A stretch of DNA of 64,000 bases from Candidatus Omnitrophota bacterium (GTDB lineage: Bacteria > Omnitrophota > Gorgyraeia > Zapsychrales > Fredricksoniimonadaceae), in NCBI GenBank assembly GCA_903901225.1, contig CAIUQE010000003.1, positions 23,461 through 87,460 on the forward strand, read 5' to 3'. The notes below the pieces were generated by a model. It ran no database searches. It was not told where the DNA came from and saw nothing but the letters and a program-made list of their open reading frames with translations. Position 1 is the stretch's first letter; each line of letters opens with the position of its first letter. The translations under genes and the position numbers were made by a program. This document shows, piece by piece, positions 3,239 through 30,078 of the stretch.

Positions 3239-4141
3239 TTATGTAAGATTATCGAAAAATACGCCTTCATCTCGATTAAAGCGAATGTGCGTTGATCCCG
3301 AGTAACCGTCAGGGCTCTTAATAATTCGTATTTCTGCGATTCCTAGGTTTTCAGGTTTAGGCTCATAATAGTCTTCCCGGTAAAGCTGCAAGACAACATC
3401 TGCATAGACGTCGAAACCACCTTCCTCGCGGGCGATCTGGGATAAGAGATGTAACGGCCGTGTTTTTTCGTGCTCTTCTGTACGACGGGATAGCCAACTC
3501 GTCACAAAAACTGTTACTTCATTGCGAACAGCCATTGCTTTTAACCTTCTGGTGACCATCTCGCACGCCTTATAGCGCGCTGCTCCATCCAATAAAGCGA
3601 CATCTTCAATACACTGCAATGGATCGATCACAATGAGTTTTACCTTATGTTCAGCGACATGTTTCTTTACTATGCGCTCAACATCCTGGACAGTACGCGT
3701 CATGGAATCAATGTAAATTGGCAACTCCGCGACTATCCCCACACCCGCAACAAACTTTGATCGCTCTGTTCCATCCATCATCCCACAACGCGCTTTAGAC
3801 CTATCCACTTTGCCTTGTGCGCAAATAAGCCCAAAAACAATGTTCCGCTGTGTTAATTGGCCCAACGAGAAATACAATACAGGCACCTTTTGCTTAGCCA
3901 CATGCGCTGTGATAGAAGCCGCAAAGGCAGTCTTCCCCATTGCCGGCCGAGATAAACAGGCGAGCAGTTCACCAGGATGAAGTCCAGACAACATACGGTC
4001 AAGATCATTAAATCCAGTTGTAATCCCAGTGAGGCCAGGCCCCTGCCGTTCCATCCGTTCAATCTTATGAAGGACATCGCCAACGACATCTTTTACCAGC
4101 ACTGGGCCGGGCTTCTTCTTTAGGAAATTTGTTAGTAACAT
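3239..4141 (-). CDS. DnaB-family replicative helicase, RecA-fold C-terminal domain only (phage/plasmid type)
   Basis: DnaB motifs H1/Walker A (GFNDLDRMLSGLHPGELLACLSRPAMGKTAFAASI), Walker B (KLIVIDPLQ), and C-terminal block (RRLKAMAVRNEVTVFVTSWLSRRTEEHEKTRPLHLLSQIAREEGGFDVYADVVLQLYREDYY). Lacks the N-terminal primase-binding domain. Confidence 0.6.
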   Translation of the reverse strand: MLLTNFLKKKPGPVLVKDVVGDVLHKIERMERQGPGLTGITTGFNDLDRMLSGLHPGELLACLSRPAMGKTAFAASITAHVAKQKVPVLYFSLGQLTQRNIVFGLICAQGKVDRSKARCGMMDGTERSKFVAGVGIVAELPIYIDSMTRTVQDVERIVKKHVAEHKVKLIVIDPLQCIEDVALLDGAARYKACEMVTRRLKAMAVRNEVTVFVTSWLSRRTEEHEKTRPLHLLSQIAREEGGFDVYADVVLQLYREDYYEPKPENLGIAEIRIIKSPDGYSGSTHIRFNRDEGVFFDNLT

Positions 4142-4212: not shown

Positions 4213-4240
4213 TAAAAAAAGCGCCCTATAAAAGGCGCCC
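4213..4240 (-). terminator. rho-independent terminator closing the nine-gene ssp-like operon
   Basis: Plus strand reads aaaaaaaGCGCCctataaaaGGCGCcc. On the minus strand this is a GC hairpin followed by TTTTTTT, about 150 nt downstream of the protease gene stop (4389). Confidence 0.4.
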
Positions 4241-4388
4241 TGCTATCTTCCATTACCCCGTAATAAAAGGTAAGGTCATTCTGAAAACAGCTTATCTTCT
4301 CTGCGCAAATAATCCTCCCCTGTAAAATACGCCATTTCCACACTGCAATTTCTATAGGTAAAAAAACGGTCGATTATTTGCTCATACA

Positions 4389-5204
4389 TTAGATGATGCC
4401 ATTGTCTTTTGCGAGCTGCAGCACCCGTTCTGCTTTTGTTGCCTTAATAGGCTGTCCCTCTCTACCATTAGGATAGAAAGCTGACTGTACGCCAATGAAA
4501 TATAGATTGGGAGTCCAAAGGTTGTCCTTGCCCGATGGTAACCGAGCCCATACCCCGCAACCGCTCAGTCCATTGGGGCGAGCCGCCTCTTCATCCAACG
4601 TAAAATCCACTAAAAAATGACGTTGAGGATCAAACTCTGCGTAATCAGCTTTTGGTTCAATAACGCCAGAACCTAGAAAGTAATGAAAAACGGCAACCCC
4701 TTGTTTGTCGACCATCCGTGCCAATTCAACGGAGAAGCCAAACATATAAGTCGGCGTATTAGGCTCGGCAGGCAGGATACTGCCTTTGTTTAGATTAAAG
4801 AAAATAAGGTCTTTAATTTCTTTTGCGGACGAATCAATTTCCAAAAGAGCCAGGTCGTCGTCAGAATCAGAATAGAATCTATTGATTAACGGAAGCGTCT
4901 GCGCGTAAGACTTGGTTGAAATCTTGGACAGTATTTGTATAGGCGTATGCTTTACTCTGTCCTTATGAGCATCTATAAGCGATCCTTCTGGTCTAAAGAG
5001 GAATCGGAGGTCGGCGTTCTGGTAGGAACTTTTAACAACGTGCTTGCAGGTAAGAACAAAGAAGCGCTTGTTGATTTCAATAAGTGAACCGGTCCCCCAA
5101 CCTGATTCGTTGGCCGCGAGTGACACATCCACCGCAACCGTGAGAGAACAAACCGATTCAGTAATGGCCAATCTTGCCTTTTCTTCGAGATTGAGGTCTC
5201 CCAT
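4389..5204 (-). CDS. trypsin-like (S1/chymotrypsin-fold) serine protease
   Basis: Catalytic triad motifs in order: His (FVLTCKHVV), Asp (DDDLALLEID), Ser (GLSGCGVW, GxSGxxV type). Last gene of the operon. Confidence 0.5.
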   Translation of the reverse strand: MGDLNLEEKARLAITESVCSLTVAVDVSLAANESGWGTGSLIEINKRFFVLTCKHVVKSSYQNADLRFLFRPEGSLIDAHKDRVKHTPIQILSKISTKSYAQTLPLINRFYSDSDDDLALLEIDSSAKEIKDLIFFNLNKGSILPAEPNTPTYMFGFSVELARMVDKQGVAVFHYFLGSGVIEPKADYAEFDPQRHFLVDFTLDEEAARPNGLSGCGVWARLPSGKDNLWTPNLYFIGVQSAFYPNGREGQPIKATKAERVLQLAKDNGII

Positions 5205-5208
5205 AAGA

Positions 5209-5484
5209 TTATCTACAACCCGACCTAATCACGGCCACTATTTGACGAAACTTATTCTCTGGACTTTGCTTATAATACGATCTCACGACATCTACCACGT
5301 TACCTCTATTAAGACCTGGATTATCCCGACAAAGAGGATCATCAAGGTTATGTCGCCTTGCATATAATCCGTCTGCAATGCCTAAAATATAGCTATTTGC
5401 AACAGCAATCGAATGTGTATCGCTGTTCTCATCAAGCCAGTGACCATTAGGAACTTCACCTGTGTGAGTGTCTTCTTTCATCAA
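5209..5484 (-). CDS. hypothetical small protein
   Basis: 91-aa ORF with 4-nt gap to the protease gene and 21-nt gap to the cysteine desulfurase gene. No domain recognised. Confidence 0.3.
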   Translation of the reverse strand: MMKEDTHTGEVPNGHWLDENSDTHSIAVANSYILGIADGLYARRHNLDDPLCRDNPGLNRGNVVDVVRSYYKQSPENKFRQIVAVIRSGCR

Positions 5485-5505
5485 AATTCTCCCGGAGAAA
5501 TATGG

Positions 5506-6657
5506 CTAAGCTCTCAACTTCGCTACAGCGGCCCGAAGAATCGGAATGGCTTTAGCAATTTCGTCATCTGTGGTCATTCGTCCAAGACCAAAACGAATAG
5601 CACTGTTAACTCGTTCCGATGTTGCCCCCATTGCTTTAAGGACATAACTTCCTTCCCAATTTATACTCGTACAGGCAGATCCGCTTGATACCGCAAGGTC
5701 ATTCCAAAGATTCATCATCAATGTATCTGACTTAACTCCGAGAAAACTGATATTCAAATTATTGTAAAGCCGCTGTTCCATGCTGCCATTGACAACTATG
5801 TCCTTTATCCCTCCCGACAATCCCTTCAATAATTCATCACGCATACGCCTAATTCGAACAGCTTCAGCACTCATTTCCAGATTCGCAACTTCAAAAGCCT
5901 TGGCTAAGCCCACAATAAGCGGCACTGGAAGCGTTCCGGGGCGAAGTCCACGCTCCTGCCCCCCTCCGTATATGATTGGCTCAAGCCGGCACGAATTTCG
6001 CACATAAAGTGCTCCAACACCTTTTGGGCCATAAATTTTATGTGCTGAAATGGATAAAAGATCGACACCTAAATCATCTACATTGATAGGCAACTTCCCG
6101 GCCGCCTGTGTTGCGTCACAATGAAAAACAAGCCCATGCTGCCTTGAAAGCTCACCTATATCTTTAATAGGGTTGATGATGCCTATTTCGTTGTTCACAA
6201 ACATAAAGGACAAAAGGCCGGTATCAGGACGCAGAGCATCTCTGATAGCGTTAATCTTGAAGCATCCATCCTTATCTGGAGACAGATACGAAACATCAAT
6301 TAACTTCTGATCTTCAAGGCAAGCAAGAACGTCTAGAACAGACTTATGTTCAATCGCAGAGGAGACAACATGTGACTTCCCCTGTTTAGAAAGGACTTTT
6401 AATACCCCCTGCAAAGCTATATTGTTTGATTCTGTAGCTCCACTGGTGAAAATCACATCTGACCGAGAACCGGCACCGATCATTTTTGCTACAATTTGAC
6501 GTGATTTATCAATAGCATGAGCAGCCTTCTCCCCAAAGCCATGAGAAAGACTCCCGGCATTTCCAAAATCATCCTGAAAGAACGGGAACATCTCCTGGGA
6601 AACCCGGGGATCTACTGGCGTGGTCGCATGATAATCTAGATATATAGCGCGTTCCAT
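5506..6657 (-). CDS. sspA: cysteine desulfurase (class V aminotransferase; SspA/DndA/IscS-like)
   Basis: MERAIYLDYHATTPVDPRV..., SAHKIYGPKGVGALYVR (PLP-lysine motif), and C-terminal GSAC region. Sits in the same operon as the PAPS-reductase/DUF499/DUF4007-like genes. The symbol is tentative. Confidence 0.7.
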   Translation of the reverse strand: MERAIYLDYHATTPVDPRVSQEMFPFFQDDFGNAGSLSHGFGEKAAHAIDKSRQIVAKMIGAGSRSDVIFTSGATESNNIALQGVLKVLSKQGKSHVVSSAIEHKSVLDVLACLEDQKLIDVSYLSPDKDGCFKINAIRDALRPDTGLLSFMFVNNEIGIINPIKDIGELSRQHGLVFHCDATQAAGKLPINVDDLGVDLLSISAHKIYGPKGVGALYVRNSCRLEPIIYGGGQERGLRPGTLPVPLIVGLAKAFEVANLEMSAEAVRIRRMRDELLKGLSGGIKDIVVNGSMEQRLYNNLNISFLGVKSDTLMMNLWNDLAVSSGSACTSINWEGSYVLKAMGATSERVNSAIRFGLGRMTTDDEIAKAIPILRAAVAKLRA

Positions 6658-6667
6658 CTTATAAGAC

Positions 6668-7600
6668 CTAATTAGTTAATAAACGCACTCTTTGAGAATA
6701 CGAAGGCGTATCAATAGAGATGTACTTTACCGAATGCTTTTGGCAATAAGAAAGAAGATTGACCACGAGCTGTTTAATATCTTTCCTATAAGGACGAGGA
6801 TCGTCCTTTAACTGATTGTGAAGATTCGCCGTGATTTCTCCAAAATACATCTCTTTACTTGGCTTCCCGTCCAACATCGTAATCAGCCAACGAAAAACCT
6901 TGGAATCATTAAAAGATTTTCCGCCATCATCCTCAACGGAAAACAGAAGCTGATCATGTAACATACCTTCAACCGAAACCTGCTCCTCACTCAAATTCAC
7001 CCAAGGTAGATCATGAACCCAAAGATCAGCACTTTTAGGCACCACATTGTCCGGCCACGAGGCAAGATTAGATAAACCCGGAGCATTCTTTTGCGTCGAT
7101 GCATCTTTCAGAAAGGCGGCCATTTTAAGCAATGTCGCAGAATCTATTGGCGCTGCACTCTTCAATATCTGATCTACAAATAATAAATTCTCTTTTGAAG
7201 CTTCCGCCTCAACAACAGCCTCCAGATTCCCTTCCCCAAACAATTTCAATCCGTTAGTTGTAAAATTGGCGCTACCAACAAAGATCTTTCTTTGATCGAT
7301 CGAATAAATCTTTGCGTGTAAATTGTCAATTATTCCGACACGGAAATTGGCTTCTAAAGCCGTTCGGACGGCATCGAGCGATGAGGCTCCTGATAGGAAA
7401 TCATGCGGGGAAAGACGTGCCACTAAACGAACTTCAACGGCAGGGGATATATTTCTGACAAGCCATTCAATGGCAGGGCTAGTCACATATGCACTAATAA
7501 CAGTGATAAGTTTACTGGTCCTAAACTCTTGTTCTAGAATCGACTTTACTTCATCAGACTTTAGTAAGCGTCCAACAGACTTATCTCCAGGCAATGACAT
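6668..7600 (-). CDS. phospholipase D (HKD) family nuclease
   Basis: HxK(x)4D(x)6GSxN motif: LHAKIYSIDQRKIFVGSANFTTNG. 310 aa. 10-nt gap to the downstream cysteine desulfurase gene; 25-nt gap to the upstream GHKL ATPase gene. Confidence 0.6.
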   Translation of the reverse strand: MSLPGDKSVGRLLKSDEVKSILEQEFRTSKLITVISAYVTSPAIEWLVRNISPAVEVRLVARLSPHDFLSGASSLDAVRTALEANFRVGIIDNLHAKIYSIDQRKIFVGSANFTTNGLKLFGEGNLEAVVEAEASKENLLFVDQILKSAAPIDSATLLKMAAFLKDASTQKNAPGLSNLASWPDNVVPKSADLWVHDLPWVNLSEEQVSVEGMLHDQLLFSVEDDGGKSFNDSKVFRWLITMLDGKPSKEMYFGEITANLHNQLKDDPRPYRKDIKQLVVNLLSYCQKHSVKYISIDTPSYSQRVRLLTN

Positions 7601-7625
7601 TACTGGACTCCGATCAACAATATAC

Positions 7626-9446
7626 TTAATGTTCAGACATTTTTATAAATTCCCTGGCAATTCGTCCCCAATCCTGTCGAATATCTCCATAACGCTCTCT
7701 TGCTTCAGCCGAAGCTTCGTCCTCAAGACGCGCCCATGCCATCAACATTAACTTCATCGCTGTGTAAATTTTCGACCCCTTATCTTCTTCCTTTGATTGC
7801 TCTAAAAGTTCAAACAAATGATCACTTGCTGGGTGCTTGGCATTTATAACAATAATAAGCACCCCAGCCTTAGAACGAATGTCAAAGATTGCACTTCCTG
7901 GAATAGCTTGTTTTTCAAAAATAAATTTAATATCTGGCTTGAGTTGTATAATTTTAGCCGCAGCCTCACGCGTTTCTTCAACAGGAACATTTCCAATGGT
8001 TGCTAATTCCTGAGAGAGCTCCTCTACTCTTTCCTTTTCCGGAGCCTCCTGCGCCTGATCACTTTCTGATGTTTTTCCTAATTCAGCCCTTCTCTTTCGC
8101 ACTGCCTCAGAAGCACGAGCTTCTGCAGAACTCGGTCCTAATGTATCGTCTTCCCCACGCGGCTTGCCCATCCGCTGGACTTGAATAAAGATATCCTCTT
8201 TGGCTTTTTCAATCCTTTGGGAAAGTGTATATATGACTGCCCGAGGATCGTTACTGTCCTTTAAATGCTCTTTGTATTCGTTCTCAGTCATATCTTCATT
8301 TTTAGCATCTTCAAGAACATCCATCATTTTAAAATTTCGCGCTGATTGTTTAGTGTTATCAACACCAAAAATCTCATCTAACTCCGCTCCAAAATGAACT
8401 TCACAACCCCACCAGCGTTCTCTGGTGTCTGATTTATCAGTAAATGACTTTTCCATCTCAAGTTCTCTGCCCTCACGCATAACAGAAATACCAACATTCT
8501 TGGCAGCGTCTTTTCCGAACGGAGAATTCCCCCCAGAATCACGGGCCTCCTGCCTACAAATTGAATATCGCAATTTGATTGGATACGATTCACCTTCCAT
8601 CTCTACGTTAATTGTCTCTTCATGCTTAAAAACAAATGCCGGCTTCTTATCGGGAAGTTCGGGAGCTGTCGTACCCTCCATTAAATATAACGGATCATTA
8701 GGACGAACAAACATCTCTGACCCCACCAAGTCCATCTTCTTCCCATTCTTAATATATGCAGCAAATTTTATAGAGACCCTTTCCTCAGCTATAAAATATC
8801 TGTACATCCTACCGATTATCAATTCCGAATTCTCAAAAAGAGCTCTCGGTGTACGCCATTTTAACTTGTCCAACTTTGACCACACCACTAACGTCCCATG
8901 ACTTTCTAGTTTCTCAGAAATCATTTTCGCCCACTTCTCCGGCAGCTCAACAGGCTGTGGATTAGGAACAAACCTTACTTTATTCCTTTTGATTTCATCT
9001 AAATCAAGATAAGTGTGAAAACACTTCGATTTCTGCCACGAATAAACATCTACACGGCGCCCTTGGGAAATTGATGAATTGGGCAACCCCATCCCAAACT
9101 TTCCCATACCTTTTGTCTTACCATCCAAATGAGTTCCATTGCCAAATGACAACGCAAGCCTCATTATGTTGGAAGTCATGCCTGAGCCATTATCGTAAAC
9201 ACCAATCTCTTTGATACGTTGGACAACGCGTTCTTTAACAGGGCCTTCTTCGACCTCACACAAAATATGAACATCTGTCTTCTTTCTAACTGCCAATCCA
9301 GCCTGAATGCTGTTATCAACTAATTCAGCAATCGCATGCGCGGCATCGCGATACCCAGAACTGCGCATCGCCTCAACCGACAAACTTGGAGGATAAATTT
9401 CGTATTCATCATCACTATTTTTTGTGTTATCCATCTTCGGTGACAT
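7626..9446 (-). CDS. GHKL-superfamily ATPase (MORC/HATPase_c_3-like), 606 aa
   Basis: N-box AIAELVDNSIQAG, G1 box VYDNGSGM, G2-like GKFGMGL. Long C-terminal extension with a charged coiled region. Confidence 0.6.
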   Translation of the reverse strand: MSPKMDNTKNSDDEYEIYPPSLSVEAMRSSGYRDAAHAIAELVDNSIQAGLAVRKKTDVHILCEVEEGPVKERVVQRIKEIGVYDNGSGMTSNIMRLALSFGNGTHLDGKTKGMGKFGMGLPNSSISQGRRVDVYSWQKSKCFHTYLDLDEIKRNKVRFVPNPQPVELPEKWAKMISEKLESHGTLVVWSKLDKLKWRTPRALFENSELIIGRMYRYFIAEERVSIKFAAYIKNGKKMDLVGSEMFVRPNDPLYLMEGTTAPELPDKKPAFVFKHEETINVEMEGESYPIKLRYSICRQEARDSGGNSPFGKDAAKNVGISVMREGRELEMEKSFTDKSDTRERWWGCEVHFGAELDEIFGVDNTKQSARNFKMMDVLEDAKNEDMTENEYKEHLKDSNDPRAVIYTLSQRIEKAKEDIFIQVQRMGKPRGEDDTLGPSSAEARASEAVRKRRAELGKTSESDQAQEAPEKERVEELSQELATIGNVPVEETREAAAKIIQLKPDIKFIFEKQAIPGSAIFDIRSKAGVLIIVINAKHPASDHLFELLEQSKEEDKGSKIYTAMKLMLMAWARLEDEASAEARERYGDIRQDWGRIAREFIKMSEH

Positions 9447-9461
9447 TGTTTTCTCCCTGTT

Positions 9462-11063
9462 TTACCAGACATCTTCCCAAAAATTGAAACCATCACTAAT
9501 GCTTTTAAAACCCATCAGCTGATCCGCTACTGTGATAACTTTACATGTTTTATTCCCGTGGACCTTAGGTCCACGTATAACCCTTCCAATCATTTGACTA
9601 AATAAAACAACGGACTTAGTGGGTCGCGCGATAAAAGCAACGCTAGTGCGTGGCGCGTCAAAACCTGTTGTTAAGACCCCATAATTAGTTAGGATGTTTA
9701 AATGATCAGAATCACGAAATTTCTTAATAAGTTGACTTCTATGTTCTGACGGGGTGTGTGATGTAACAGATGCGCACTCCAGTCCTTTCAAATTTAATAA
9801 ATTGGAAAGTAACTTTGCATGCGCCACTGAACAGGCAAACACTAAAATCTTTGCCCCAGACTTAGCCTCCTGAATAATCCTAGTCAACAAAAGCAAATTT
9901 CTACGCTCATCCTGCGCCAGTTTATTCAAGACTTCATCTGGAATGTCTAATTCCTCAGCGATCTTCTTCTTTTCAGCAATAGATAATACAAAGCCGGGGG
10001 TGTACGGCATCCTAATAAACTCAGGAACAGCCAAATACCCTTCTTTCTGAAGATACTCAACGGGCGTTTTATATCCCTTAACTTTTAAAGTTACTTTCTG
10101 ACGATGAAAATACTTTGCTAACTTAATATCCTCCCCTGGGTTCAAAAAGGATCGTCCAGGCGTGGCAGATAAGCCTAAAACAGCCGTCTTTTCAGTTGGG
10201 GCCAGCAAATTAAGTAAATGTTGATATGTGGAGGCCGTTGCTTGATGAGCCTCATCCATAATCACCATATTCACACGGCGTGACATCTCAAGAAAAGATG
10301 GCATTTGCGAAAGGCTTCGTTTATACAACTTGGACAGGCCTGCAACAATAAAACCGTTCTGCGCTTTTGATAAATCAAAATCATAACCAGCATAATAACG
10401 ATAAAGATTAAGTGATTTATTACCTAAGACACTCCATGACTTCTGAAATTCTTCAGCAGCCTGATCACATAACTCCTCTGAATGCGCCAACCATATAACA
10501 AGACAATCTTCAGATTTAGTTCGAAAACAATCTGCTATAACATTCATAGCTGTGCGGGTCTTCCCAGAACCGGTCGGCATATGTAAAAGAACACGCCTGG
10601 GAGAGCTTTCAACAAGCTCAGAGACCTCTCTTACGGCATTCCGTTGATGATCAAACAGAGGATACTGACAAACAGTGCTTGCAATGGGCGGGGTATCCTC
10701 TGAACTATCTTCCGTCGGCAATTCGCAAGCAAAGAAGTTAAAAAGAAGCCTTGTTTTCTTTTGTTTAATAGAAAAGGATTGCCTCTTTAGTGCAAACCAA
10801 GGGTCATCCCCTGCCTGAATACCAAGCGCCAGCGCAAGATGCTCAGCATCCTCCTTCTTTAAAGCCGAAAACAACAACGCCCTCCTTCCAGCATCCAACA
10901 AAATAAAACTGGGCGAGAATTCTTTAAGAATTAAGTTAGAAAGCCGCGGAGCAGAACAACTCCGAACATCTAACTTTTCAAGCAAAGAAATTGCCTGAGG
11001 ACCTAGCATCCCGGACAAATCACTAATTCCTATTCTAGATAAAGCCTCTTTTAGGTCAGGCAT
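9462..11063 (-). CDS. SF2 DEAH-box helicase (ResIII/DEAD-like)
   Basis: Motif I LHMPTGSGKT, motif II MDEAH, motif III LSATP, motif V TTGFDAP, motif VI QMIGRVIRG. Confidence 0.7.
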   Translation of the reverse strand: MPDLKEALSRIGISDLSGMLGPQAISLLEKLDVRSCSAPRLSNLILKEFSPSFILLDAGRRALLFSALKKEDAEHLALALGIQAGDDPWFALKRQSFSIKQKKTRLLFNFFACELPTEDSSEDTPPIASTVCQYPLFDHQRNAVREVSELVESSPRRVLLHMPTGSGKTRTAMNVIADCFRTKSEDCLVIWLAHSEELCDQAAEEFQKSWSVLGNKSLNLYRYYAGYDFDLSKAQNGFIVAGLSKLYKRSLSQMPSFLEMSRRVNMVIMDEAHQATASTYQHLLNLLAPTEKTAVLGLSATPGRSFLNPGEDIKLAKYFHRQKVTLKVKGYKTPVEYLQKEGYLAVPEFIRMPYTPGFVLSIAEKKKIAEELDIPDEVLNKLAQDERRNLLLLTRIIQEAKSGAKILVFACSVAHAKLLSNLLNLKGLECASVTSHTPSEHRSQLIKKFRDSDHLNILTNYGVLTTGFDAPRTSVAFIARPTKSVVLFSQMIGRVIRGPKVHGNKTCKVITVADQLMGFKSISDGFNFWEDVW

Positions 11064-11081
11064 AACAAAATATCCTAGTAA

Positions 11082-11891
11082 TCAAAGATTACAAATCTGA
11101 CACGGGAGCTGGTCATCCTCATGATCTAGCACACTACTTAAAACTTCAACAAGCGGCCTATTGCTTTTGCTCTTCAATTCACGCTCTAGCTCTGTCTCAT
11201 GCTTGCGCTTAATTTCAGCCATACGCTCTGGCTGGACAAGCTCCTCTAAACTTTCACCGGCAATCCATGTGAAACGCTTGCCAGTGACAGGATCTGACTT
11301 CTCATACGCCATTGCTCTCTTAAAAAGATCTGGATGCCTTTCATAAAGGCCTACCCATTCCATGCGCCGCTGGAAGAAACAAAAGAAACAACCGGAACGA
11401 GAGCGCCACTTGTAATACTCAGGCAACCCCAACCCAGCCTCCTCGAGAATTTTCATAACCCCCTGTTTATCAATCTTGTGATCAACAAAAGGGAAAACAC
11501 TTGTAATATCCGCCTTGGGATTCTGATATCCCTTACGACCTTGCTCATCGTATCTGATACCAACATAACTTATTGCCTTATCTTTACCCACAAACTTCTC
11601 TAAGGGCTCAAGTTTAAGATTAACAGTGCACCAACGCATCCTTTGCGACGGCAGAAAGTAATTATTCCTAACCAACCACCAATCAAAGTCCTTCTCGGCG
11701 CTCAATCGCACAATCGGCTTGCCAAGATATTTCTCAAGCTTATGCAAATAGTCATAAGTTTCTTCAAGCTCGACGCCAGTATCACAAAAGAAATACTCAA
11801 TATCCTGGACCTTGTCCCTCATAAAAATAGCAAGAGCACTGCTATCCTTACCGCCGGAGATGCCTAATATATGACGAACTTTCTCTGCCAT
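11082..11891 (-). CDS. sspD: PAPS-reductase/ATP-pyrophosphatase family protein (SspD-like; BREX type 4 BrxP-like)
   Basis: PP-loop ILGISGGKDSSALAIF at the N-terminus. 269 aa, too short for DndC. Sits immediately downstream of the giant ATPase gene. Confidence 0.65.
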   Translation of the reverse strand: MAEKVRHILGISGGKDSSALAIFMRDKVQDIEYFFCDTGVELEETYDYLHKLEKYLGKPIVRLSAEKDFDWWLVRNNYFLPSQRMRWCTVNLKLEPLEKFVGKDKAISYVGIRYDEQGRKGYQNPKADITSVFPFVDHKIDKQGVMKILEEAGLGLPEYYKWRSRSGCFFCFFQRRMEWVGLYERHPDLFKRAMAYEKSDPVTGKRFTWIAGESLEELVQPERMAEIKRKHETELERELKSKSNRPLVEVLSSVLDHEDDQLPCQICNL

Positions 11892-11899
11892 AAAATCCT

Positions 11900-14800
11900 C
11901 TATTTAGACTCTTTAACGAGCATTTTTCTCAAAACTTCGGAAAGTGCCGATAAGAAGATCTCGGGTTTATCAGACAAACCCCGTTCATCAATAAAATCAA
12001 CCAAGCTTTGCTCTAATTGCGAAATCCGCTCTTGGTATTCATCCTGAATGTGAAAAACCTTGGCCATTTCACCATGCTTAGACGAAGTAACCGATATCTG
12101 AGCAATCTCCCCTTTTATGTCGCCAGAAATCCTTCCCCGCTCTAAAGCTATCTGTTCATATTTCTTAATTTTGTGATGGAAAGCTGCCATCTCATGCTCA
12201 TACTTTAATAAATCAGCATCCGTCCATTCCAAAGGGGGGCGACCAGTGACAACTGTAGCAATCGATTCAAGCCAGGACTTATTAGGCAAATGATCCGCCA
12301 CCCGAACCAAAAACCCCTTAAATGAAGGATCCAGAGTTACATCAATGACCAATTTAGACCTTTCCGAGATATTCGACCGCGCGTCAGAAGCTCGAGGATC
12401 AACATTAAAGGCTCGATAAAGAATCTCTTGAATGTCGTTAAAGAGCTTATTCTCCTCTTTCTGTAACTCGGCAATGCTTTCTCTGAGCTTCTCAACAAAA
12501 GCCTTAACCTCAGATTCCTGTTCCCCATCGATATTCTGAAAAGGCTTAAACCCGCAAGCAATCGGTAAATCACGGTACAAAAGCCCCGCAGGTTCTTTGG
12601 CTTCTAAGAGACACGCCCTTACTAAGCGAGTTCTTTCAGAAACATTGCGAGTCTTTTTAACATAAGTAGGAAGCCTGTTTGCAAACTCACAAAAGATTTT
12701 AACAATCTGAAGGATCGAGCCTTTTTCCTTAAACTTCTTTTGCCCCGCTTGATCCAAGAATGTCGCTATTAAATTGTCAAAAACAACTGCGCGCACTCCT
12801 TCTATCAAACAAAGCTGAACTTCGTAGTTCTTAGGGACCCTCGCCATCAATTCAAAATCCAACGCCGTTGGTTTAGGCAAAAATGTTCCCTGGTCAAACA
12901 AGGCAAATTCATTCTCATAAGCCATATAAAACGCAAGCAATACGACCGGAATAACTCCTTCACGAACACCAAAAGGCGGTTGCATTAAAAACTGATACAA
13001 TTCTAAAAGGGGGATTTTCCTTTCTCCGTTTTCTTTCAAATAAGATAAAAGACCTTTCAAGACGCCGCGCCAATGTGGGGCAACCTTTTCAGGTTCGCGA
13101 ACAAACTCCCAATAGCCATCGCCTGACTTTTGGTGCAGCTGCCCTTCAAAACACACAGCCATATACATGCTATATTCGGCAGGATATCCCTCGATCCCTA
13201 GACGCTCCTTCATATGCGAACTCATCATCCCATCCATCAACAATCGCCGACCCTGCGTCGCTGAGGAAGATATTCTCCGACGATTCAAAATTTCGTTCTT
13301 AATAATCGGCGCTTTAGAATAAATCTTATCGCAGATGTCCGAAACCCACTTGCTCAGAAGCTTTTCAGAAACCCCCTTCCGAGCCCCTTCTAAATCAAGC
13401 CAAACGACTGATTCCCCCAGTTCCCGGTCAGGTGCAAAGAATGTTTCATACGCGAGAGAAAGGACTTGTTTCTCAACCTCCAATAAGCGCGAATCAAGCT
13501 CACGCCGGGCGATTGCGTCACCCTGTAAAGCTGGGGTTTCTTTTCTAATCAACTGAAGCGCTACTAATTCAACAAAAGCATCTAACAAACGAATCGCATC
13601 ATTCGGCCGACTTATAATTGTCGCTCTTTGTACTTGCTTAGACGCACCTTCCAATAACGATTGAAGCTCCTTTGATGATCGCCGAACCGAATCTGTTGAT
13701 AAACAAAACAAGATTTGTCCGTCTACTCCTTCGATTGGCTTCTTCAACTCTTCCATTAAATCTTTATCAAGAACATACTTCTTCTTAAAGAACCGCAGAG
13801 TGCCAGATGTGAATAAATGCCTTTTGGCAACCTGAGGTCGTAACGGGAACTGCTCATTAAGCCTAGCAACCAAATCTTTGTGTGAAAACCCAGCAGCTTT
13901 CTTCTCAGATAACAACTGCTCGATATCTATATCACTGCCCCCCCAAATTGCGTATGACCCAGAATAACGGCGAAAAACAACAACCGATCTTCTCATAAGA
14001 GCACTGACACCCTCTTTAAGCCTCTTACGTTCAGCCGGGCCTCTGAGATCCAGCGCACAAATCAGTGCTTCTTCATTGACGGATATTCCTAGCGTATCCG
14101 CCATAATGTTCAACATTCCTATCGTCTTGAGCAAAGACCTCTCAAACGCATCTGAAGTCCTCGCCAAGGCGTGCTCAATCTCAGCCCAACGCTTTCCATC
14201 ATGCTGCACGAAAAGCTTCCCACCAAAATTTACAACAAAATAATCGTAGAGATTCGCAAGGGTAAAAAACTGCACCTTCGCCATATCATGAGGCAATTCA
14301 TTCTGAGCAAGAAAGTCCAAGAAGCCTTTGCTTTCAGATGATGTAAGAAAAGCAAACAAGCTGCGCTCATTCTGCAAAAAGCGGCTTCTAAAGAGTGGCG
14401 CCAAAGAGATGGCCGTCAAGGGGTGCAAAGGAAGACACTTTTCGAGAATCTTTATGACTTTCTCAGAAGACAATGAGGAGGGACTTGAAAACACTTCACG
14501 GTAAGCTTTAAATAATGGCTCGACCGTTATATCAATAACCTTTTTCTCTGTTGATGACCCAATATAATCTATGGCAGATGAAATGAGCTTAACAGTCTGA
14601 TCACTGGGGTCGACAAAAGATATCTCTTCGAACCTCCCTTGGATTTTAGCCCACTCATTACGTTTGTTGGATTCAAGTTTGGAAGCATAGCGATCAAAAG
14701 ACTGATGCAGAACGGTAAAGAAAAGAATCGGAAAGTCGCTAGACCTAGACGAAAACTCGGCGAGTCTTTGAAGAATGAAAATATCATTCTCCGAATTAAG

Positions 14801-15424
14801 CGCAGCAGATTCCAACGACTTTCCTAACTCATCAATTACCAGCAATAGGCCAGGAACATGATCCTTTCTCAAATACTCGCAAACATCTCTAAAAACACTC
14901 AGAACATCATCACTCGTGACAACCTTCCCCTGCTCTCCACGCTTTAAAAGAAGCGCGATGTCAGCGAAGACCTGGGGTCTCCTTCCCCTCGCCCCTTCTA
15001 AATGTTCAACTAAGCCGCGCATCACACCCTTGAGAATGGCAAGTTCTAGAGGTTCACGACTAGCTGAAATAATCGATCGAAAGAACCCACTACCTTTCTT
15101 GCCGATCGTCAAACTGGAAAAAAGCTTCTCCGAAAGTTTACTGCTGGCGCTAGTTAACAAATCCCTACTTAAAGAAGCTGCCCTGCACCCCTTACCACCG
15201 AGCAGATTCTTTAAATAAACGATGAAAGCTGACTTCCCTGTCCCATAAGGACCAATGATAGACCACGCCCTTGTCGAAACCGGTGAAGACAAACTCTTCG
15301 TGATACTATCAAGAACCTTCAGCCCAGATTCAGTTAAGACATACCCGTCGACATGATCGTCCATCTCCACTTGAACGGAACGATGGAAACGCGCCCGGAC
15401 TGTAAATAATTCATTAAATTTCAT
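11900..15424 (-). CDS. sspC: large P-loop ATPase, 1174 aa (DUF499/BrxC-like; SspC-like)
   Basis: Walker A IIGPYGTGKSAFIVYL near the N-terminus. The size and position between a DUF4007-like gene and a PAPS-reductase gene match SspC/BrxC architecture. Start overlaps the upstream gene stop (15424). Confidence 0.5.
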   Translation of the reverse strand: MKFNELFTVRARFHRSVQVEMDDHVDGYVLTESGLKVLDSITKSLSSPVSTRAWSIIGPYGTGKSAFIVYLKNLLGGKGCRAASLSRDLLTSASSKLSEKLFSSLTIGKKGSGFFRSIISASREPLELAILKGVMRGLVEHLEGARGRRPQVFADIALLLKRGEQGKVVTSDDVLSVFRDVCEYLRKDHVPGLLLVIDELGKSLESAALNSENDIFILQRLAEFSSRSSDFPILFFTVLHQSFDRYASKLESNKRNEWAKIQGRFEEISFVDPSDQTVKLISSAIDYIGSSTEKKVIDITVEPLFKAYREVFSSPSSLSSEKVIKILEKCLPLHPLTAISLAPLFRSRFLQNERSLFAFLTSSESKGFLDFLAQNELPHDMAKVQFFTLANLYDYFVVNFGGKLFVQHDGKRWAEIEHALARTSDAFERSLLKTIGMLNIMADTLGISVNEEALICALDLRGPAERKRLKEGVSALMRRSVVVFRRYSGSYAIWGGSDIDIEQLLSEKKAAGFSHKDLVARLNEQFPLRPQVAKRHLFTSGTLRFFKKKYVLDKDLMEELKKPIEGVDGQILFCLSTDSVRRSSKELQSLLEGASKQVQRATIISRPNDAIRLLDAFVELVALQLIRKETPALQGDAIARRELDSRLLEVEKQVLSLAYETFFAPDRELGESVVWLDLEGARKGVSEKLLSKWVSDICDKIYSKAPIIKNEILNRRRISSSATQGRRLLMDGMMSSHMKERLGIEGYPAEYSMYMAVCFEGQLHQKSGDGYWEFVREPEKVAPHWRGVLKGLLSYLKENGERKIPLLELYQFLMQPPFGVREGVIPVVLLAFYMAYENEFALFDQGTFLPKPTALDFELMARVPKNYEVQLCLIEGVRAVVFDNLIATFLDQAGQKKFKEKGSILQIVKIFCEFANRLPTYVKKTRNVSERTRLVRACLLEAKEPAGLLYRDLPIACGFKPFQNIDGEQESEVKAFVEKLRESIAELQKEENKLFNDIQEILYRAFNVDPRASDARSNISERSKLVIDVTLDPSFKGFLVRVADHLPNKSWLESIATVVTGRPPLEWTDADLLKYEHEMAAFHHKIKKYEQIALERGRISGDIKGEIAQISVTSSKHGEMAKVFHIQDEYQERISQLEQSLVDFIDERGLSDKPEIFLSALSEVLRKMLVKESK

Positions 15425-16362
15425 TATGCCTTCCGCTCGAAATACTTCTTTAGGTATTCCATTGGCTCCGGTGTTGGCGACCTGCGATAAAGCTGCCTTA
15501 ACCCAGACGTCTCATCAAAAGTAATTTGCCCATTTGTTAAACGTTCAATCTTCTCAAACCTACGTATCAAAGAATCCTCGTCAATCTTAAAAATAAGCCC
15601 TGGCGACGCCTCACCATAAGCAAGCTCCTCCAAGGAAAGAACATCTCCTTGCCCCTTTACTTTATGCCAGTAATCAAGCACAGCAAAAACTAAAAGCTCA
15701 TCGGGAAGACCCTTCTTGTCCCCACGTGAAAAAACAAATAATCCCTTCTGGCCAGCTTCAAACACTAGCTCCAACTCCACCAAAGGGCAGTCTAATGAAT
15801 CCTCTAAAAGCGTCGCGACAGAAACATTCTTTGACGGAACATAAGACCTGACAAAACAATCAATATCACGGGTTAAAGTATTGGGCGTCAATCTCGAATT
15901 ATTCTGACGAGCAAACTCCATCAGCTCCGCGAACAGATGCTCCTTAGTAAACTCAACCGAAGAAAGCTTATTAAATGCATAAAACCACGTCGAAGCTCCG
16001 CTCTTTTCCGAGGCCAAGAACCAGTGAAGAAGCCATAAAGTTGCCCCGTCTTCTAAATATGGATCCCAGCCATTATCAAAAAACAATTTCTTACCTAATG
16101 AAGTGACCTGAACTCCAGAAGCCTCTCCATTCTCTGCAGGAAGATCCTCGATCACCTTTAGTATCGTGGCCCAGTACTTAATAGCATCCACCATATTCTT
16201 ACCGACACCTAGACACACTAATGCGTCATCCTTTCTAAACAAGAAAGAATCAGAAGAAACAGCATCGACCACCTTTTTTAACCAGGTATAGCGAAAAGGG
16301 AAAGTGCCATGACCGGAGAAATTAAGCTTAAAAGAAGATTTTTCCAATGTTGAAACGCTCAT
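15424..16362 (-). CDS. sspB: DUF4007-like protein (SspB-like), first gene of operon
   Basis: N-terminal FSGHGTFPFRYTWLKK motif, which I recall as typical of DUF4007. No DGQHR (DndB) motif. 312 aa. This call is from memory of the family, not a search. Confidence 0.4.
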   Translation of the reverse strand: MSVSTLEKSSFKLNFSGHGTFPFRYTWLKKVVDAVSSDSFLFRKDDALVCLGVGKNMVDAIKYWATILKVIEDLPAENGEASGVQVTSLGKKLFFDNGWDPYLEDGATLWLLHWFLASEKSGASTWFYAFNKLSSVEFTKEHLFAELMEFARQNNSRLTPNTLTRDIDCFVRSYVPSKNVSVATLLEDSLDCPLVELELVFEAGQKGLFVFSRGDKKGLPDELLVFAVLDYWHKVKGQGDVLSLEELAYGEASPGLIFKIDEDSLIRRFEKIERLTNGQITFDETSGLRQLYRRSPTPEPMEYLKKYFERKA

Positions 16363-16656
16363 TCGAACGACTTTCTATGTTCTTTTTCTTAGTTGTTAAT
16401 AAAAGATACTATTTAAAAAAACAAATAATCTGCACTTCTGTGCCAGCAACTAACGTAAAAGGCACCGATTCTCATCAAATCCTTGATTTTTTAACTTATA
16501 ACATATTAACATTATTCTTTTAACTTTCTACTGCTTAATAGGTCTTACACAATCCTAGTAAATCTTTTAAATTAAATCCTCTCTAATTTCGACCTATTTA
16601 TGCTTCTAGATAAGCCCAAAACTGATGCCCCCCATCACTGACCACCAATCACTTCA
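16363..16656 (-). promoter_or_regulatory. AT-rich intergenic region upstream of the ssp-like operon (presumed promoter/operator)
   Basis: About 290 bp AT-rich spacer between two minus-strand genes. The operon ATG lies at 16362. No confident -35/-10 assignment. Confidence 0.3.
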
Positions 16657-16989
16657 CTAAGCAATCTTAATTATGCGATCACCGTTAGGATTGCTCGGAT
16701 CTTCCATCGGCACATGATACTCAACTGAGAACTTATCGCCGACCTCTACCTTTAATTTCTTTGCTAAAACAATCCCAGAATCATTCCATTCTTGCCAATT
16801 AAATACCGGCTGGTCATAGTGCCGTTCAAAATCAATAACCCACTCTGCAAACAACTTTTCAAGCTCTTTGGAAATCCCATATTCTTCAGGAAAGCCACAA
16901 ACAGAATCAGCAATGTTCCCGCCACATTTATATGGAGGTTCATCAGGATACCGAAGCCAAGCGTACGGCCCCATCCCAAAATCGGCCAT
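16657..16989 (-). CDS. hypothetical protein
   Basis: ORF 16657..17019, likely starting at MADFGMGPYAWLRY. No domain recognised. Confidence 0.3.
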   Translation of the reverse strand: MADFGMGPYAWLRYPDEPPYKCGGNIADSVCGFPEEYGISKELEKLFAEWVIDFERHYDQPVFNWQEWNDSGIVLAKKLKVEVGDKFSVEYHVPMEDPSNPNGDRIIKIA

Positions 16990-17015
16990 AATAACAAGGG
17001 TTAACGTATGATCCC

Positions 17016-17165
17016 TCACTTAATCTTTTCCCCGCACCCAGGACAGTCAACTTCGTCGTCAAACAAAATACTTTTGTCAACTGAAGTGCCACATTTCGGA
17101 CACTTGATCGTGTCCGCACCGACAACAGCATCGTAAATAACAAATTCATCGAATAAGTCATCCAT
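17016..17165 (-). CDS. small zinc-ribbon protein (~49 aa)
   Basis: MDDLFDEFVIYDAVVGADTIKCPKCGTSVDKSILFDDEVDCPGCGEKIK carries two CxxC pairs. Confidence 0.35.
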   Translation of the reverse strand: MDDLFDEFVIYDAVVGADTIKCPKCGTSVDKSILFDDEVDCPGCGEKIK

Positions 17166-17285
17166 GTTATCTCCCTTACTGAATAGAACTATAAAACACA
17201 CCTGCGACAACGTTATGTCGCGTAGAATAAAAAAGCCTCGCCTTTAAGCGAAGCTCGCAAAATTACACCCTTATCGTAGGCCCAT

Positions 17286-18140: not shown

Positions 18141-19127
18141 TCACTGAATGGATGCTAAGTAATCGGTCACTGTCTTCTTAATCTGCTGCCTAAAATTCTC
18201 GGGCTCAACAACACGAAGGCAGGGAATCCAATTCATAATTATATGAGAAACCTCCTCAGGATGCCCTGGGACGGTCTCTATAAGCATCGAGCCATCCGCT
18301 TCTTCTTTAACAATCTTCTGTAACGGAAAGTATTTACGTTCTTTGAAATACTGCACCGCTTCAGGCGCTACTTTAATCAACACTCGCTCTCCACGAACTT
18401 CATCAAACCAAACATTCACGCTGTCCTCAAGAATCTTGTCGATGTTAACTGACGGCGCAAACGACTCCTCCAAAATCTGCACATCCTGCACACGATCTAC
18501 CCGGTATTTCTGGATCTGCTTCTCACCTTTCTTAATCGCTATCAGATACCAAAACCCGTCAAAGAACGCGATCTTGAGCGGCTCAAGACAATACTCTTTC
18601 TCGATCTGGGCTGCGGAAACATATTTAATTGCGATGCGATTGCTTTCAAGAATGGCGGCTTCAAGATACTTGACCTGAGATGTTACAGGAAGAGGACTCC
18701 GCTTCGCTGGGACCTTAGCGTAATATGGCGTATAAAGATCTTTCGCCATTATCCGCTTAAATAAACTCCGGAAGGATTCCTCGAAAGTCCCTCCCAATCC
18801 ACAGGCTACTTCAAACATAAAAGACAGAAGCGAAGCCTGCTCTTCTGACAACGAGACCTTGCGTAATGAAAACCCTTCCATAAATTGATGGCGCCCGTTC
18901 TCCAAAGTCTCGATCGGATACCCGGCATCATGCAGGATCTTCAGATCTCTTTGAACAGTACGCTGGGTAACATCAAGAGTCTCAGCAACCTCCTTTGATG
19001 ATATGGACTTTCCTTTGTCCAAGATCGAAAGCATGGTAATCAGCCGTTCCACTGCCTTCTTATGCCCGTCGGCCTTCTTGCCTTTGCCTGTCCGTTTGAA
19101 TGTCACGATCTTCTTTTTCGCCGGCAT
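18141..19127 (-). CDS. WYL-domain transcriptional regulator (HTH-WYL-WCX; BrxR/CapW-like)
   Basis: HTH region ISSKEVAETLDVTQRTVQRDLKILHDAG, WYL motif FFDGFWYLIAI. Start ATG at 19127 with SD AAGGA. It overlaps the stop of the upstream nuclease gene by 4 nt. Confidence 0.6.
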   Translation of the reverse strand: MPAKKKIVTFKRTGKGKKADGHKKAVERLITMLSILDKGKSISSKEVAETLDVTQRTVQRDLKILHDAGYPIETLENGRHQFMEGFSLRKVSLSEEQASLLSFMFEVACGLGGTFEESFRSLFKRIMAKDLYTPYYAKVPAKRSPLPVTSQVKYLEAAILESNRIAIKYVSAAQIEKEYCLEPLKIAFFDGFWYLIAIKKGEKQIQKYRVDRVQDVQILEESFAPSVNIDKILEDSVNVWFDEVRGERVLIKVAPEAVQYFKERKYFPLQKIVKEEADGSMLIETVPGHPEEVSHIIMNWIPCLRVVEPENFRQQIKKTVTDYLASIQ

Positions 19128-19129
19128 AA

Positions 19130-20698
19130 TTATCCTTTCTGGAGTGCTTCTAAAGCCGCCAGTATGTCCACCATAGCTATGGTATCTAGCGCGCAATAAT
19201 CCTCAAGATCAGTGTACACTTTTTGTCTATCCGCAGGATCAACTTGATCTCCATAAGTCACGCGGGAATACTCCGTCGTAGCCTGTCCCCCGTCAGAGAT
19301 TGCCATGTCCTTGTAACTCTTTCCGCCTAAGACCGGTAGCACCTTCTTGATCGAGGCAGAACCACGCTGATCGGGATGATAATACAAGAAACTCCGAAAA
19401 ACATCTAAGAGGTCAGCCATTCTCGAACAAATATCAGCAATCCGAGACTCGTACTCCGGGAAAGAGTCCTTCATCTTATTAAGGACGTGCGATTCTTCAA
19501 ATGTGCGGTTGTAGACAACAACATTCCCCTGAATGCCAGTACACGCGCACAAGGAATCCAAGAAATCCTTCCTGGGATCGGCAGGGCTCTTTTGCAAGAA
19601 TGAATAGTGCTTCAATTCTCCACCGGGGATCTCTTGGACATGCACAGAGAACTGAATCGGGATTTGCTGGTATGGCGACGTTCCATTGAATCTTGGGATC
19701 GCCTCAAAGATCGTCTCAAAATCAATAAAATATAACGGGTACTTCATCCCCTTAACAAATGCCACGATGGCTGGCAAATCAACATGAGGTTTCCCCGCCA
19801 AGGCACACTGGTATTGAATGGCCCTAGTATCAGACAACTTGGCATTCTTAGGAATATCTTTCAAAAGCACTATCCCCTGATCCAGCATTTGAAAAGCCTT
19901 GTCCTTATTGCCCCTAAGCTCCAATACATTGCCCGGCGGAAGAAATGCCCAGCATGATAGCTTCATCTGGCACTCATAAGGTTTATTGCAATGCTTTCCT
20001 ATGGAAATCCCCGGACAGGTAGGCATATCAACGATTGCCAAAAAGCCATCAATCGTCTTTTTAATTTCGCCGGACAACAACGCAACCTTGTCGGTCACAT
20101 CAACCAATGCAAAGAACTCCTGCACATCAATATCGCCATCGCGAACATAATCACTATTGATGTGCATCAGAAAGCAGCGCCCAATCTTCAAGCCGGCCAG
20201 TTCGTAACAGTATCTTTGAAAAGCAATGTCCTGAAGGTATACATCTTTAAGATCGGTGCCGCACTTTACTTCGACAATATCCCAATACCCTATTCCTAAA
20301 CTTGATGGGACCAAGATATCGGCGCGTGAAAAGAGCCGCCCAGCCATCACCCCCGCCTCGTAGATCGGTTTCGGATTTGCCGCCGCCAACAAAGTCTTGG
20401 TTTCCTCTATATTCCGCAAGAAATCATCTTCCTGGATGCGAGCACCTCCGGGGAATCGAGTCATCGCGAGCTCGCCAACCTTATGACCGACATCAAATAC
20501 CTGCTGAAGCCTATCAGATGGTAGCGGGATCGCCTCAGGGGCATTGCATCGCATCCAAAGCAACTTTGGACACTGCAAACCATTCAAGAACTTCGACTTT
20601 GTGAGAACTTTCGGATCCTTGACTACTTTCCTGTCTCGGACAAAATCGTAAACAGCATCGTTCTTCAGCTTTTGTGACTCGAAATTTTCGTCATCCAT
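19130..20698 (-). CDS. PD-(D/E)xK (Cas4/RecB-like) nuclease fused to DEDD 3'-5' exonuclease (DUF2779-like)
   Basis: PD-(D/E)xK core GYWDIVEVKCGT in the N-terminal half. DnaQ-like Exo I motif YFIDFETI in the C-terminal half. ATG at 20698 preceded by SD AGGGG. Confidence 0.5.
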   Translation of the reverse strand: MDDENFESQKLKNDAVYDFVRDRKVVKDPKVLTKSKFLNGLQCPKLLWMRCNAPEAIPLPSDRLQQVFDVGHKVGELAMTRFPGGARIQEDDFLRNIEETKTLLAAANPKPIYEAGVMAGRLFSRADILVPSSLGIGYWDIVEVKCGTDLKDVYLQDIAFQRYCYELAGLKIGRCFLMHINSDYVRDGDIDVQEFFALVDVTDKVALLSGEIKKTIDGFLAIVDMPTCPGISIGKHCNKPYECQMKLSCWAFLPPGNVLELRGNKDKAFQMLDQGIVLLKDIPKNAKLSDTRAIQYQCALAGKPHVDLPAIVAFVKGMKYPLYFIDFETIFEAIPRFNGTSPYQQIPIQFSVHVQEIPGGELKHYSFLQKSPADPRKDFLDSLCACTGIQGNVVVYNRTFEESHVLNKMKDSFPEYESRIADICSRMADLLDVFRSFLYYHPDQRGSASIKKVLPVLGGKSYKDMAISDGGQATTEYSRVTYGDQVDPADRQKVYTDLEDYCALDTIAMVDILAALEALQKG

Positions 20699-29990: not shown

Positions 29991-30078
29991 TCCGTCCGAG
30001 TTAGGGCCAAAATAATAAAAAAACGCCCTGAGGCTCCGCCCGAACCAGAGCCAAAAAATATTTATACCTGGGATACCT

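Follow-up and report, generated by a model that had tools for sequence, protein, structure and literature searches.

We wondered why an operon for the phosphorothioate (PT) modification of DNA would carry genes for a helicase, a GHKL ATPase and a nuclease between the genes of its modification enzymes. The operon, an ssp locus, occupies positions 4389-16362 of a 64,000-nucleotide stretch, here called the window, from a Candidatus Omnitrophota bacterium (GenBank assembly GCA_903901225.1, contig CAIUQE010000003.1, positions 23,461 to 87,460). It comprises nine open reading frames (ORFs), all on the minus strand, which encode in gene order proteins of 312, 1174, 269, 533, 606, 310, 383, 91 and 271 amino acids and are joined by junctions of -1, 8, 18, 15, 25, 10, 21 and 4 nucleotides (nt). 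These coordinates match exactly an earlier note on this DNA, which had described nine minus-strand genes with gaps of at most 25 nt. We read the locus as a horizontally acquired Ssp PT restriction-modification system with its writer and effector modules in one transcription unit, a reading to which we assign a probability of about 0.65. The PT writer itself is ordinary. What appears to be new is the restriction partner, which seems to be widespread and to have gone unrecognised.

The writer genes sspB, sspC, sspD and sspA are complete and their catalytic motifs are intact. SspB (312 amino acids, 15424-16362), the DUF4007 DNA-binding component of the Ssp modification complex, matched the PADLOC SspB model at 1.8e-95 and, over its full length, Pfam DUF4007 at 5.9e-84. 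SspC (1174 amino acids, 11900-15424) is a large P-loop ATPase with the Walker A motif GPYGTGKS and the Walker B motif LLVIDE; it matched PADLOC SspC at 1e-280, with BrxC as the second-best model (2.8e-147), and gave no match in Pfam. SspD (269 amino acids, 11082-11891) is a PP-loop enzyme of the PAPS-reductase fold carrying SGGKDS and the cysteine pairs CFFC and CQIC (PADLOC SspD 2.9e-113 over the full length, Pfam PAPS_reduct 4.3e-11); other models matched it at 4.6e-11 (BrxP) and, over a short region of about 35 residues, at 6e-07 (DndC). SspA (383 amino acids, 5506-6657) is a cysteine desulfurase of the IscS/DndA type (PADLOC SspA 2.8e-148 and DndA 2.5e-147, Pfam Aminotran_5 6.4e-76), with the pyridoxal phosphate-binding lysine K207 in SAHK and the catalytic cysteine C329 in SGSAC. 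The earlier note had proposed this SspB-SspC-SspD-SspA set, naming a DUF4007 protein, a PAPS-reductase PP-loop protein and a class-V cysteine desulfurase, and the very strong profile hidden Markov model (HMM) matches to all four bear it out. Its description of the 1174-residue protein as a P-loop ATPase of DUF499/BrxC size holds for the Walker motifs and the BrxC match; the DUF499 assignment is left unconfirmed, no Pfam family having matched. It had also noted the lack of DndB, DndD and DndE, and indeed no operon protein matched a model of any of these.

The same note considered the locus to be equally a BREX type 4 system, an alternative that the model scores and the gene content render scarcely credible. 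SspC is homologous to BrxC, and BREX type 4 also has a DUF4007 protein and a PAPS reductase (PMC12839542). However, we found no PglZ or BrxL among the operon ORFs or among the ORFs of at least 120 amino acids scanned at 1.5-4.1 kb and 16.6-31.8 kb of the window, and type 4 BREX retains PglZ in all 457 taxa analysed and BrxL in 96% of them (PMC12839542). SspD, moreover, is a stand-alone protein of 269 residues, whereas the BrxP-type PAPS reductase has about 780 and is usually fused to DUF4007. Because PglZ and BrxL are absent and SspD matches its own model far better than BrxP, as SspC does relative to BrxC, we assign the locus to Ssp.

IscS together with SspBCD is enough for PT modification in E. 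coli (PMC8092258), and the three genes between sspD and sspA are therefore not needed for PT writing. The first of them (9462-11063) encodes a superfamily 2 (SF2) helicase of the Rad25/XPB/RadD clade with 533 amino acids (Pfam ResIII 1.7e-26, Helicase_C 2.9e-14) and motifs I (GSGKT), II (DEAH), III (SAT) and VI (QMIGRVIR, fitting QxxGRxxR); its N-terminal stretch of about 130 residues lies outside characterised regions. Its closest matches are RadD and the helicase domain of SauUSI, hit by sequence in the PDB at 6e-25 and 7.6e-15, and XPB. It also matched PADLOC PbeA at 1.4e-32, in model positions 243-618 only, which are the helicase part, and TIGR04095 at 1e-20. The second gene (7626-9446) encodes a MORC/SMCHD1-like GHKL ATPase of 606 amino acids (HATPase_c_3 1e-17; motifs ELVDN, DNGSG and GKFGMG), structurally closest to SMCHD1, MORC and MutL. 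It includes an S5 transducer domain, and its C-terminal part is helical. Its residues 104-111, GTHLDGKT, happen to fit the Walker A pattern GxxxxGK[ST] and lie in a low-confidence loop of the model, so that simple motif scans could mislabel the protein as a P-loop ATPase. The third gene (6668-7600) encodes a single-HKD nuclease of the phospholipase D (PLD) fold with a C-terminal winged helix (310 amino acids, PLDc_2 1.6e-08), in which the catalytic motif HxKx4Dx6GSxN is intact. In fold this protein comes nearest to SauUSI, Nuc, NgoAVII and BfiI, which are restriction nucleases, and we predict it to be the effector of the partner module. The DEAH helicase, GHKL ATPase and PLD nuclease had all been named correctly before, and the PADLOC v2 models miss the latter two proteins.

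Conservation and exchange of the helicase-GHKL-nuclease module

The earlier note had regarded these as three unrelated, foreign genes embedded in the operon, and the order with sspA last as a non-canonical layout. A search for the GHKL family gave more than 3,800 word-index matches and 512 clusters at E<=1e-30 among 1.84 billion representatives, and a scan of GTDB species representatives gave 538 confirmed GHKL loci, of which 80 were fetched for neighbourhood analysis. Neighbourhoods were scored by tblastn with the window proteins against the fetched loci, and a locus was called fully flanked if at least 8 kb was available on both sides. We found sspB, sspC or sspD within 10 kb of the GHKL homologue in 63 of the 80 loci and in 44 of the 47 that were fully flanked (about 94%); two of the three fully flanked exceptions carry an adjacent SspFGH. 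In every locus where a helicase gene was detected (76 of 83), the GHKL gene was its immediate downstream neighbour. Among the hosts are Planctomycetota, Alpha-, Beta- and Gammaproteobacteria, Cyanobacteria, Chloroflexota, Actinomycetota, Armatimonadota, Elusimicrobia, Gemmatimonadota and others, and the closest GTDB homologue of the window GHKL protein is 49% identical to it. The helicase-GHKL pair is near-obligately linked to sspBCD in genomes. Because adjacency to Ssp genes recurs across many phyla, the trio is not foreign to the Ssp system and forms a conserved module.

The gene order of the window recurs as well and is hence more than a chance arrangement. The arrangement sspBCD-helicase-GHKL-PLD-sspA is retained in metagenomic relatives whose GHKL proteins are 77% and 64% identical to that of the window, and on Trichormus variabilis ATCC 29413 plasmid A, there with an SspE-like gene inserted after sspD. 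The layout with sspA last is thus shared with the closest relatives and with this plasmid. On the plasmid A locus a gene annotated as 'DNA phosphorothioation-associated putative methyltransferase' (positions 1-1769 of the locus) is divergent from sspB, which places three candidate partners around one writer. Another arrangement is seen on Mesorhizobium pOM4, where the trio is convergent with sspDCB. Among PLSDB plasmids, 67 records have an SspD homologue and 13 the GHKL protein, and at least 11 of the 13 are in both lists, which puts the module on roughly 18% of the SspD-bearing plasmids.

The third gene of the module varies. In 38 of the 80 genome loci, a PLD profile HMM picked out the gene that comes right after the GHKL gene. 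In Nostoc sp. XA010 (locus L069, 7780-12979) a 383-residue HNH_4 protein and a shorter helicase of 364 residues precede the GHKL protein, sspA comes immediately after it, and there is no PLD gene; the other cyanobacterial loci L063 and L081-L084 resemble it and likewise have no PLD gene. In 17 loci of Burkholderiales, Rhizobiales and related bacteria the third gene encodes a 360-residue protein (X360), the N-terminus of which matched a PADLOC effector endonuclease model at 1.8e-15. We considered X360 as a diverged PLD protein and rejected this: hhalign gave a probability of 0.3%, and the N-terminus fits that different endonuclease model. Because the nuclease fold is swapped while the helicase-GHKL pair stays, the third position bears the mark of an effector slot, filled by a PLD, an HNH or another endonuclease beside a conserved motor pair.

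We analyzed co-evolution by comparing pairwise identities across 49 loci with Spearman and Mantel statistics. The identities of SspB, SspC and SspD correlate with each other (rho 0.70-0.85), as do those of the helicase and the GHKL protein (rho 0.55). Between the GHKL protein and SspB, SspC or SspD the correlation is weak, 0.19-0.26, and significant (Mantel p<=0.004). With strong correlation within modules and weak correlation across them, writer and partner look like separable modules, the partner being exchanged among Ssp backbones. Similarly weak co-evolution has been reported between PbeAC and DndCD (rho 0.107; PMC6459918).

The weak cross-module correlation would also suit a trio that is an independent, PT-agnostic MORC-helicase-nuclease system, merely co-localised with sspBCD in defence islands. 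Operons of MORC and superfamily II (SFII) helicase genes do occur elsewhere with methylases and other nucleases (PMC2292703), and locus L085 has no Ssp gene close to its helicase-GHKL pair. Nevertheless, an adjacency of 44 in 47 across phyla, often within one operon with gaps of at most 25 nt, goes far beyond ordinary co-localisation in islands. The trio precedes sspA in the window, in the closest relatives and on plasmid A of T. variabilis, and so stands inside the ssp operon. We hence consider an independent system improbable and the reading of the trio as a partner of Ssp the better one.

Predicted action of the module

If the locus is an Ssp restriction-modification system, SspA would take sulfur from cysteine and supply it as a persulfide, and SspD with its PP-loop, SspC as P-loop ATPase and SspB as DNA binder would install sulfur in the backbone of host DNA at a short motif. 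This writer step is modelled on homology to characterised systems and on the sufficiency of IscS and SspBCD. The helicase would translocate along DNA, and the MORC-like ATPase would dimerise on ATP binding and clamp the DNA. Dimerisation of the PLD protein would create one HKD active site, as in Nuc and BfiI, and the dimer would nick or cut DNA without host PT marks and in this way block phage replication. PT status might be read by the winged helix or via contact with SspB or SspC. On compositional analogy we favour an effector that is blocked by PT, as DndFGH and SspFGH are, over one that PT stimulates. Judged by its protein families and gene neighbourhoods, the trio probably adds a third kind of restriction partner for Ssp to SspE and SspFGH.

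Several points weigh against this reading. We found no experimental evidence for the module anywhere. The co-transcription predicted for the trio with sspA and the passenger genes (see below) derives from gene spacing. The GHKL protein co-varies weakly with the writer proteins, and L085, covered by 10 kb on each side, has a helicase-GHKL pair with no Ssp gene within 10 kb and with no recognised third gene; this locus is possibly a solitary or differently partnered version, which would mean that such a pair may occur by itself or act from afar. We recognised a third gene in about three quarters of the loci, and many of the remainder are short contigs. Finally, SauUSI, which the PLD domain matches best in structure, depends on modification for its action, so that the PT dependence could have either sign.

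The last point touches the main rival, according to which host PT would stimulate the ATPase or nuclease against invading DNA and the trio, activated by PT as SspE is, would be harmless without it. SspE is the best-studied Ssp partner and is PT-activated (PMC8092258), and the modification dependence of SauUSI fits the same picture. The restriction genes stand upstream of sspA in the operon, an order that would be tolerable if the effector were inert without PT. Yet the trio includes no DUF262-type sensor, and its combination of a multi-subunit motor with a nuclease is reminiscent of DndFGH, SspFGH and Pbe, systems that attack or keep out DNA lacking PT (PMC8092258; PMC6459918). On balance we hold activation by PT to be unlikely and continue to favour an effector that PT blocks.

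Could the trio serve modification or DNA maintenance instead? PT insertion involves nicking and ATP-driven DNA handling, and MutL-like GHKL proteins and RadD-like helicases are repair proteins, so a role in unwinding or clamping DNA for single-strand PT insertion, or in repairing PT-associated nicks, can be envisaged. We regard it as very improbable. IscS and SspBCD alone give PT in E. coli, as cited above; most sspBCD loci are without the trio, which is found on about 13 of the 67 SspD-bearing plasmids; and the free swapping of PLD, HNH and other endonucleases fits an effector and not a dedicated repair step.

A long-standing puzzle of PT biology is how self and non-self are discriminated when only about 10-15% of sites are modified. 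More tentatively, and with less conviction than for the restriction partner as such, we suggest that a MORC-type clamp and a translocating helicase might scan long stretches of DNA for sparse sulfur marks before licensing a swappable nuclease, and that such modules might form a third widespread unnamed class. If this were true, MORC-helicase scanning would offer a concrete mechanism for the discrimination puzzle, and a bacterial MORC protein would be the reader-effector of an epigenetic mark, in parallel to eukaryotic MORC and SMCHD1 in epigenetic silencing. The compact seven-gene cassette lends itself to studying how sparse backbone marks are read, and recognising the module would improve defence annotation and add a MORC-type ATPase to PT biology. 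A published census covered 2,678 sspBCD loci; about 7% each had SspE or SspFGH, and about 84% lacked both in their vicinity (PMC8092258), which leaves most Ssp systems without a known restriction partner. The module lies beside several such 'orphan' sspBCD loci and may explain a sizeable share of them (about 18% of SspD-bearing plasmids, against about 7% each for the two published partners).

Boundaries of the operon, its last two genes and the surrounding island

An intrinsic terminator at 4218-4241 of the minus strand (AGGGCGCC-TTTTAT-AGGGCGCT with a 10-bp stem, followed by TTTTTTT) closes the unit; the earlier note had placed this hairpin with its seven-T run at 4213-4240. At the other end, the AT-rich leader or promoter region 5' of sspB that had also been pointed out (16363-16656, minus strand) measures 294 nt and has a guanine-plus-cytosine (GC) content of 31.6%; a simple sigma-70 scan of it found no consensus sigma-70 promoter. 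Further upstream, an intrinsic-terminator-like hairpin with a T run (17233-17256, minus strand; 10-bp stem with 5 GC pairs, TTTTATTCT tail) ends the preceding transcription unit, and the ssp unit reaches no further than this point. Two small ORFs that overlap by 4 nt lie between this hairpin and the leader (16657-17165) and encode a 49-residue CxxC...CxxC zinc ribbon and a 120-residue protein without family match. They may form a mini-operon of their own, or the ssp transcript may begin with them.

Behind sspA follow two genes on the same strand. The 91-codon ORF with a TTG start (5209-5484) has a sub-threshold Rap1a match (23.6 bits against a cutoff of 27.7), was matched only in identical contigs and was not called in one assembly. 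The last gene (4389-5204) encodes a candidate cytoplasmic trypsin-like serine protease of 271 amino acids. Its earlier description as trypsin-like gains from a match to PADLOC LmuA (6.4e-10), a model that we interpret as protease-type, and from the motifs TCKH and GLSG; the Pfam Trypsin_2 match (0.0084) is sub-threshold. Neither gene has a counterpart after sspA in any related locus compared. A word-index search returned 15 homologues of the protease, whose neighbours are genes for primase-polymerase, integrase, resolvase and phage replication and include no Ssp genes. We rejected both genes as components of the system on the grounds that they are absent from relatives and that the protease family occurs in unrelated mobile-element contexts, and we read them as lineage-specific passengers that share the terminator and are possibly co-transcribed. 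The conserved functional unit is therefore of seven genes and not of nine, as had been thought.

The operon has a GC content of 43.2% and its immediate flanks have 46%. From the start of the window to about 30 kb GC is about 45%; it rises to 53% between 30 and 40 kb and reaches 60% further on. A low-GC island of at least 30 kb runs off the left end of the window. The contrast of about 47% to about 60% that had been noted is thus real, with a lower value for the operon itself and with 60% DNA that is not adjacent and begins at about 40 kb. The view that the locus looks horizontally acquired agrees with its position in a low-GC, mobile-element-like island, which contains a WYL regulator, a DUF2779 protein, a resolvase, a DUF3631 protein and a DnaB_C-like protein. 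Three of these flank the operon: a serine recombinase (resolvase, 21298-21834), a 905-residue protein with a C-terminal DUF3631 domain (26583-29300) and a 300-residue DnaB_C-like protein (3239-4141), all hallmarks of a mobile-element backbone. Within the window we found no integrase gene, no transfer RNA gene and no Rfam family.

An 80-nt direct repeat (29928-30007 and 30079-30158, 93% identical) is accompanied by a 22-nt hairpin at 29910-29958, and the repeat region (29910-30158) coincides exactly with the GC step from about 45% to about 53%. The repeat is probably the right-hand end of the low-GC island or an attachment-site duplication. Upstream of the operon and on the same strand, the gene for the WYL regulator (HTH_11, WYL and WCX domains; PADLOC WYL models) overlaps that for the DUF2779 protein (18141-20758). 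WYL regulators often control defence systems, and for this reason the regulator may control the ssp operon.

Comparison with known PT and restriction systems

We found no description of a helicase-GHKL-PLD partner for Ssp in the searchable literature; subscription-only papers, such as the main text of Xiong et al., 2020, were outside its reach. The partner is undescribed in a comparative-genomic reappraisal of PT systems (PMC10853773), a study of BREX diversity (PMC12839542), the PADLOC paper and a study of PT origins. The introduction of a study on PT in BREX type 4 gives dnd, ssp and tdp as the known PT systems, and the partner is undescribed in that study too.

The published Ssp restriction partners are SspE and SspFGH, which can be combined (Wang et al., 2021, PMC8092258, which also summarises Xiong et al., 2020). 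SspABCD-SspE and SspABCD-SspFGH share with the window the writer set and the modular plan, with a swappable partner beside sspBCD. SspE is a protein with DUF262 (GmrSD_N) and DUF1524 (HNH) domains and differs from the window partner; neither of these domains was found in the large island ORFs that we scanned. The new module and SspE occur together in Devosia Leaf420 and on T. variabilis plasmid A.

SspF, SspG and SspH have gene lengths of about 1.8, 1.5 and 5.3 kb (PMC8092258, Table S2), and the genes of the window trio differ from these in size. Few domain details are given in that paper, and the matching sizes of Burkholderiales genes had suggested that the trio might be SspFGH. On Sphingomonas wittichii plasmid pSWIT01 (locus L090), for which the same table scores SspFGH as 'existing', SspF has 613 residues and the Walker A motif GTAGDGKS, SspG has 510 residues, and SspH has 1736 residues with an FtsK/SpoIIIE domain at its C-terminus. 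None of the three pSWIT01 proteins gave a tblastn match anywhere in the window, and BLASTP of SspF against the window helicase and GHKL protein gave E>0.2. With no similarity to pSWIT01 SspFGH, this identity was ruled out. The new module is present in Devosia sp. Leaf420, A. variabilis plasmid A, Geminocystis pGM3709_04 and Pleomorphomonas pSM30-2, all of which are scored as being without SspFGH (PMC8092258). In 11 loci of Burkholderiales and Rhizobiales (L019, L021-L023, L026, L027, L031, L034, L036, L039 and L051) SspF-SspG-SspH adjoins a diverged helicase-GHKL-X360 module on the same strand, and nine of the 11 have sspDCB in reach. Because both lie side by side in these loci, the new module and SspFGH are distinct and combinable.

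Single components of the trio recall known restriction enzymes. SauUSI is one polypeptide with its own reader of modified cytosine, whereas the motor of the window is a separate protein to which a MORC-like ATPase is added; BfiI and NgoAVII use B3-like DNA-binding domains, whereas the window nuclease carries a winged helix. Prokaryotic operons combining MORC, an SFII helicase and a nuclease have been predicted to be restriction-modification-like, with HKD/PLD listed as a nuclease option (Iyer, Abhiman and Aravind, 2008; PMC2292703). Their common plan, an S5-type GHKL ATPase beside a Rad25-like SFII helicase and a nuclease of the RE (restriction endonuclease) fold, HNH or HKD type, is found here too. 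Those operons are linked to DNA methylases, in contrast to the backbone-sulfur writer that is the modification partner in the window, and the paper makes no mention of PAPS reductase, Dnd or phosphorothioation.

The closest named analogue of the partner module is PbeABCD, linked to Dnd. DndCDEA-PbeABCD, a PT-based defence of archaea and bacteria, and the window system both join a PT writer to an effector in which a PLD fold, an SF2 helicase and a large ATPase that manipulates DNA come together. They differ in their parts. PbeA is a fused PLD-helicase, whereas the window PLD protein is encoded on its own, carries a winged helix and gave no match to PbeA models; PbeC is an SMC-like ABC ATPase, whereas the window ATPase is a MORC-like GHKL protein, and no SMC-like or AAA_23 protein was found in the operon; and the small PbeB and PbeD have no counterpart there. 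PbeABCD pairs with Dnd and the window trio with Ssp. This pairing is the tighter of the two: of the PbeAC pairs, 42% have dndCD in their neighbourhood (Xiong et al., 2019; PMC6459918), compared with the linkage to Ssp genes of about 94% observed here.

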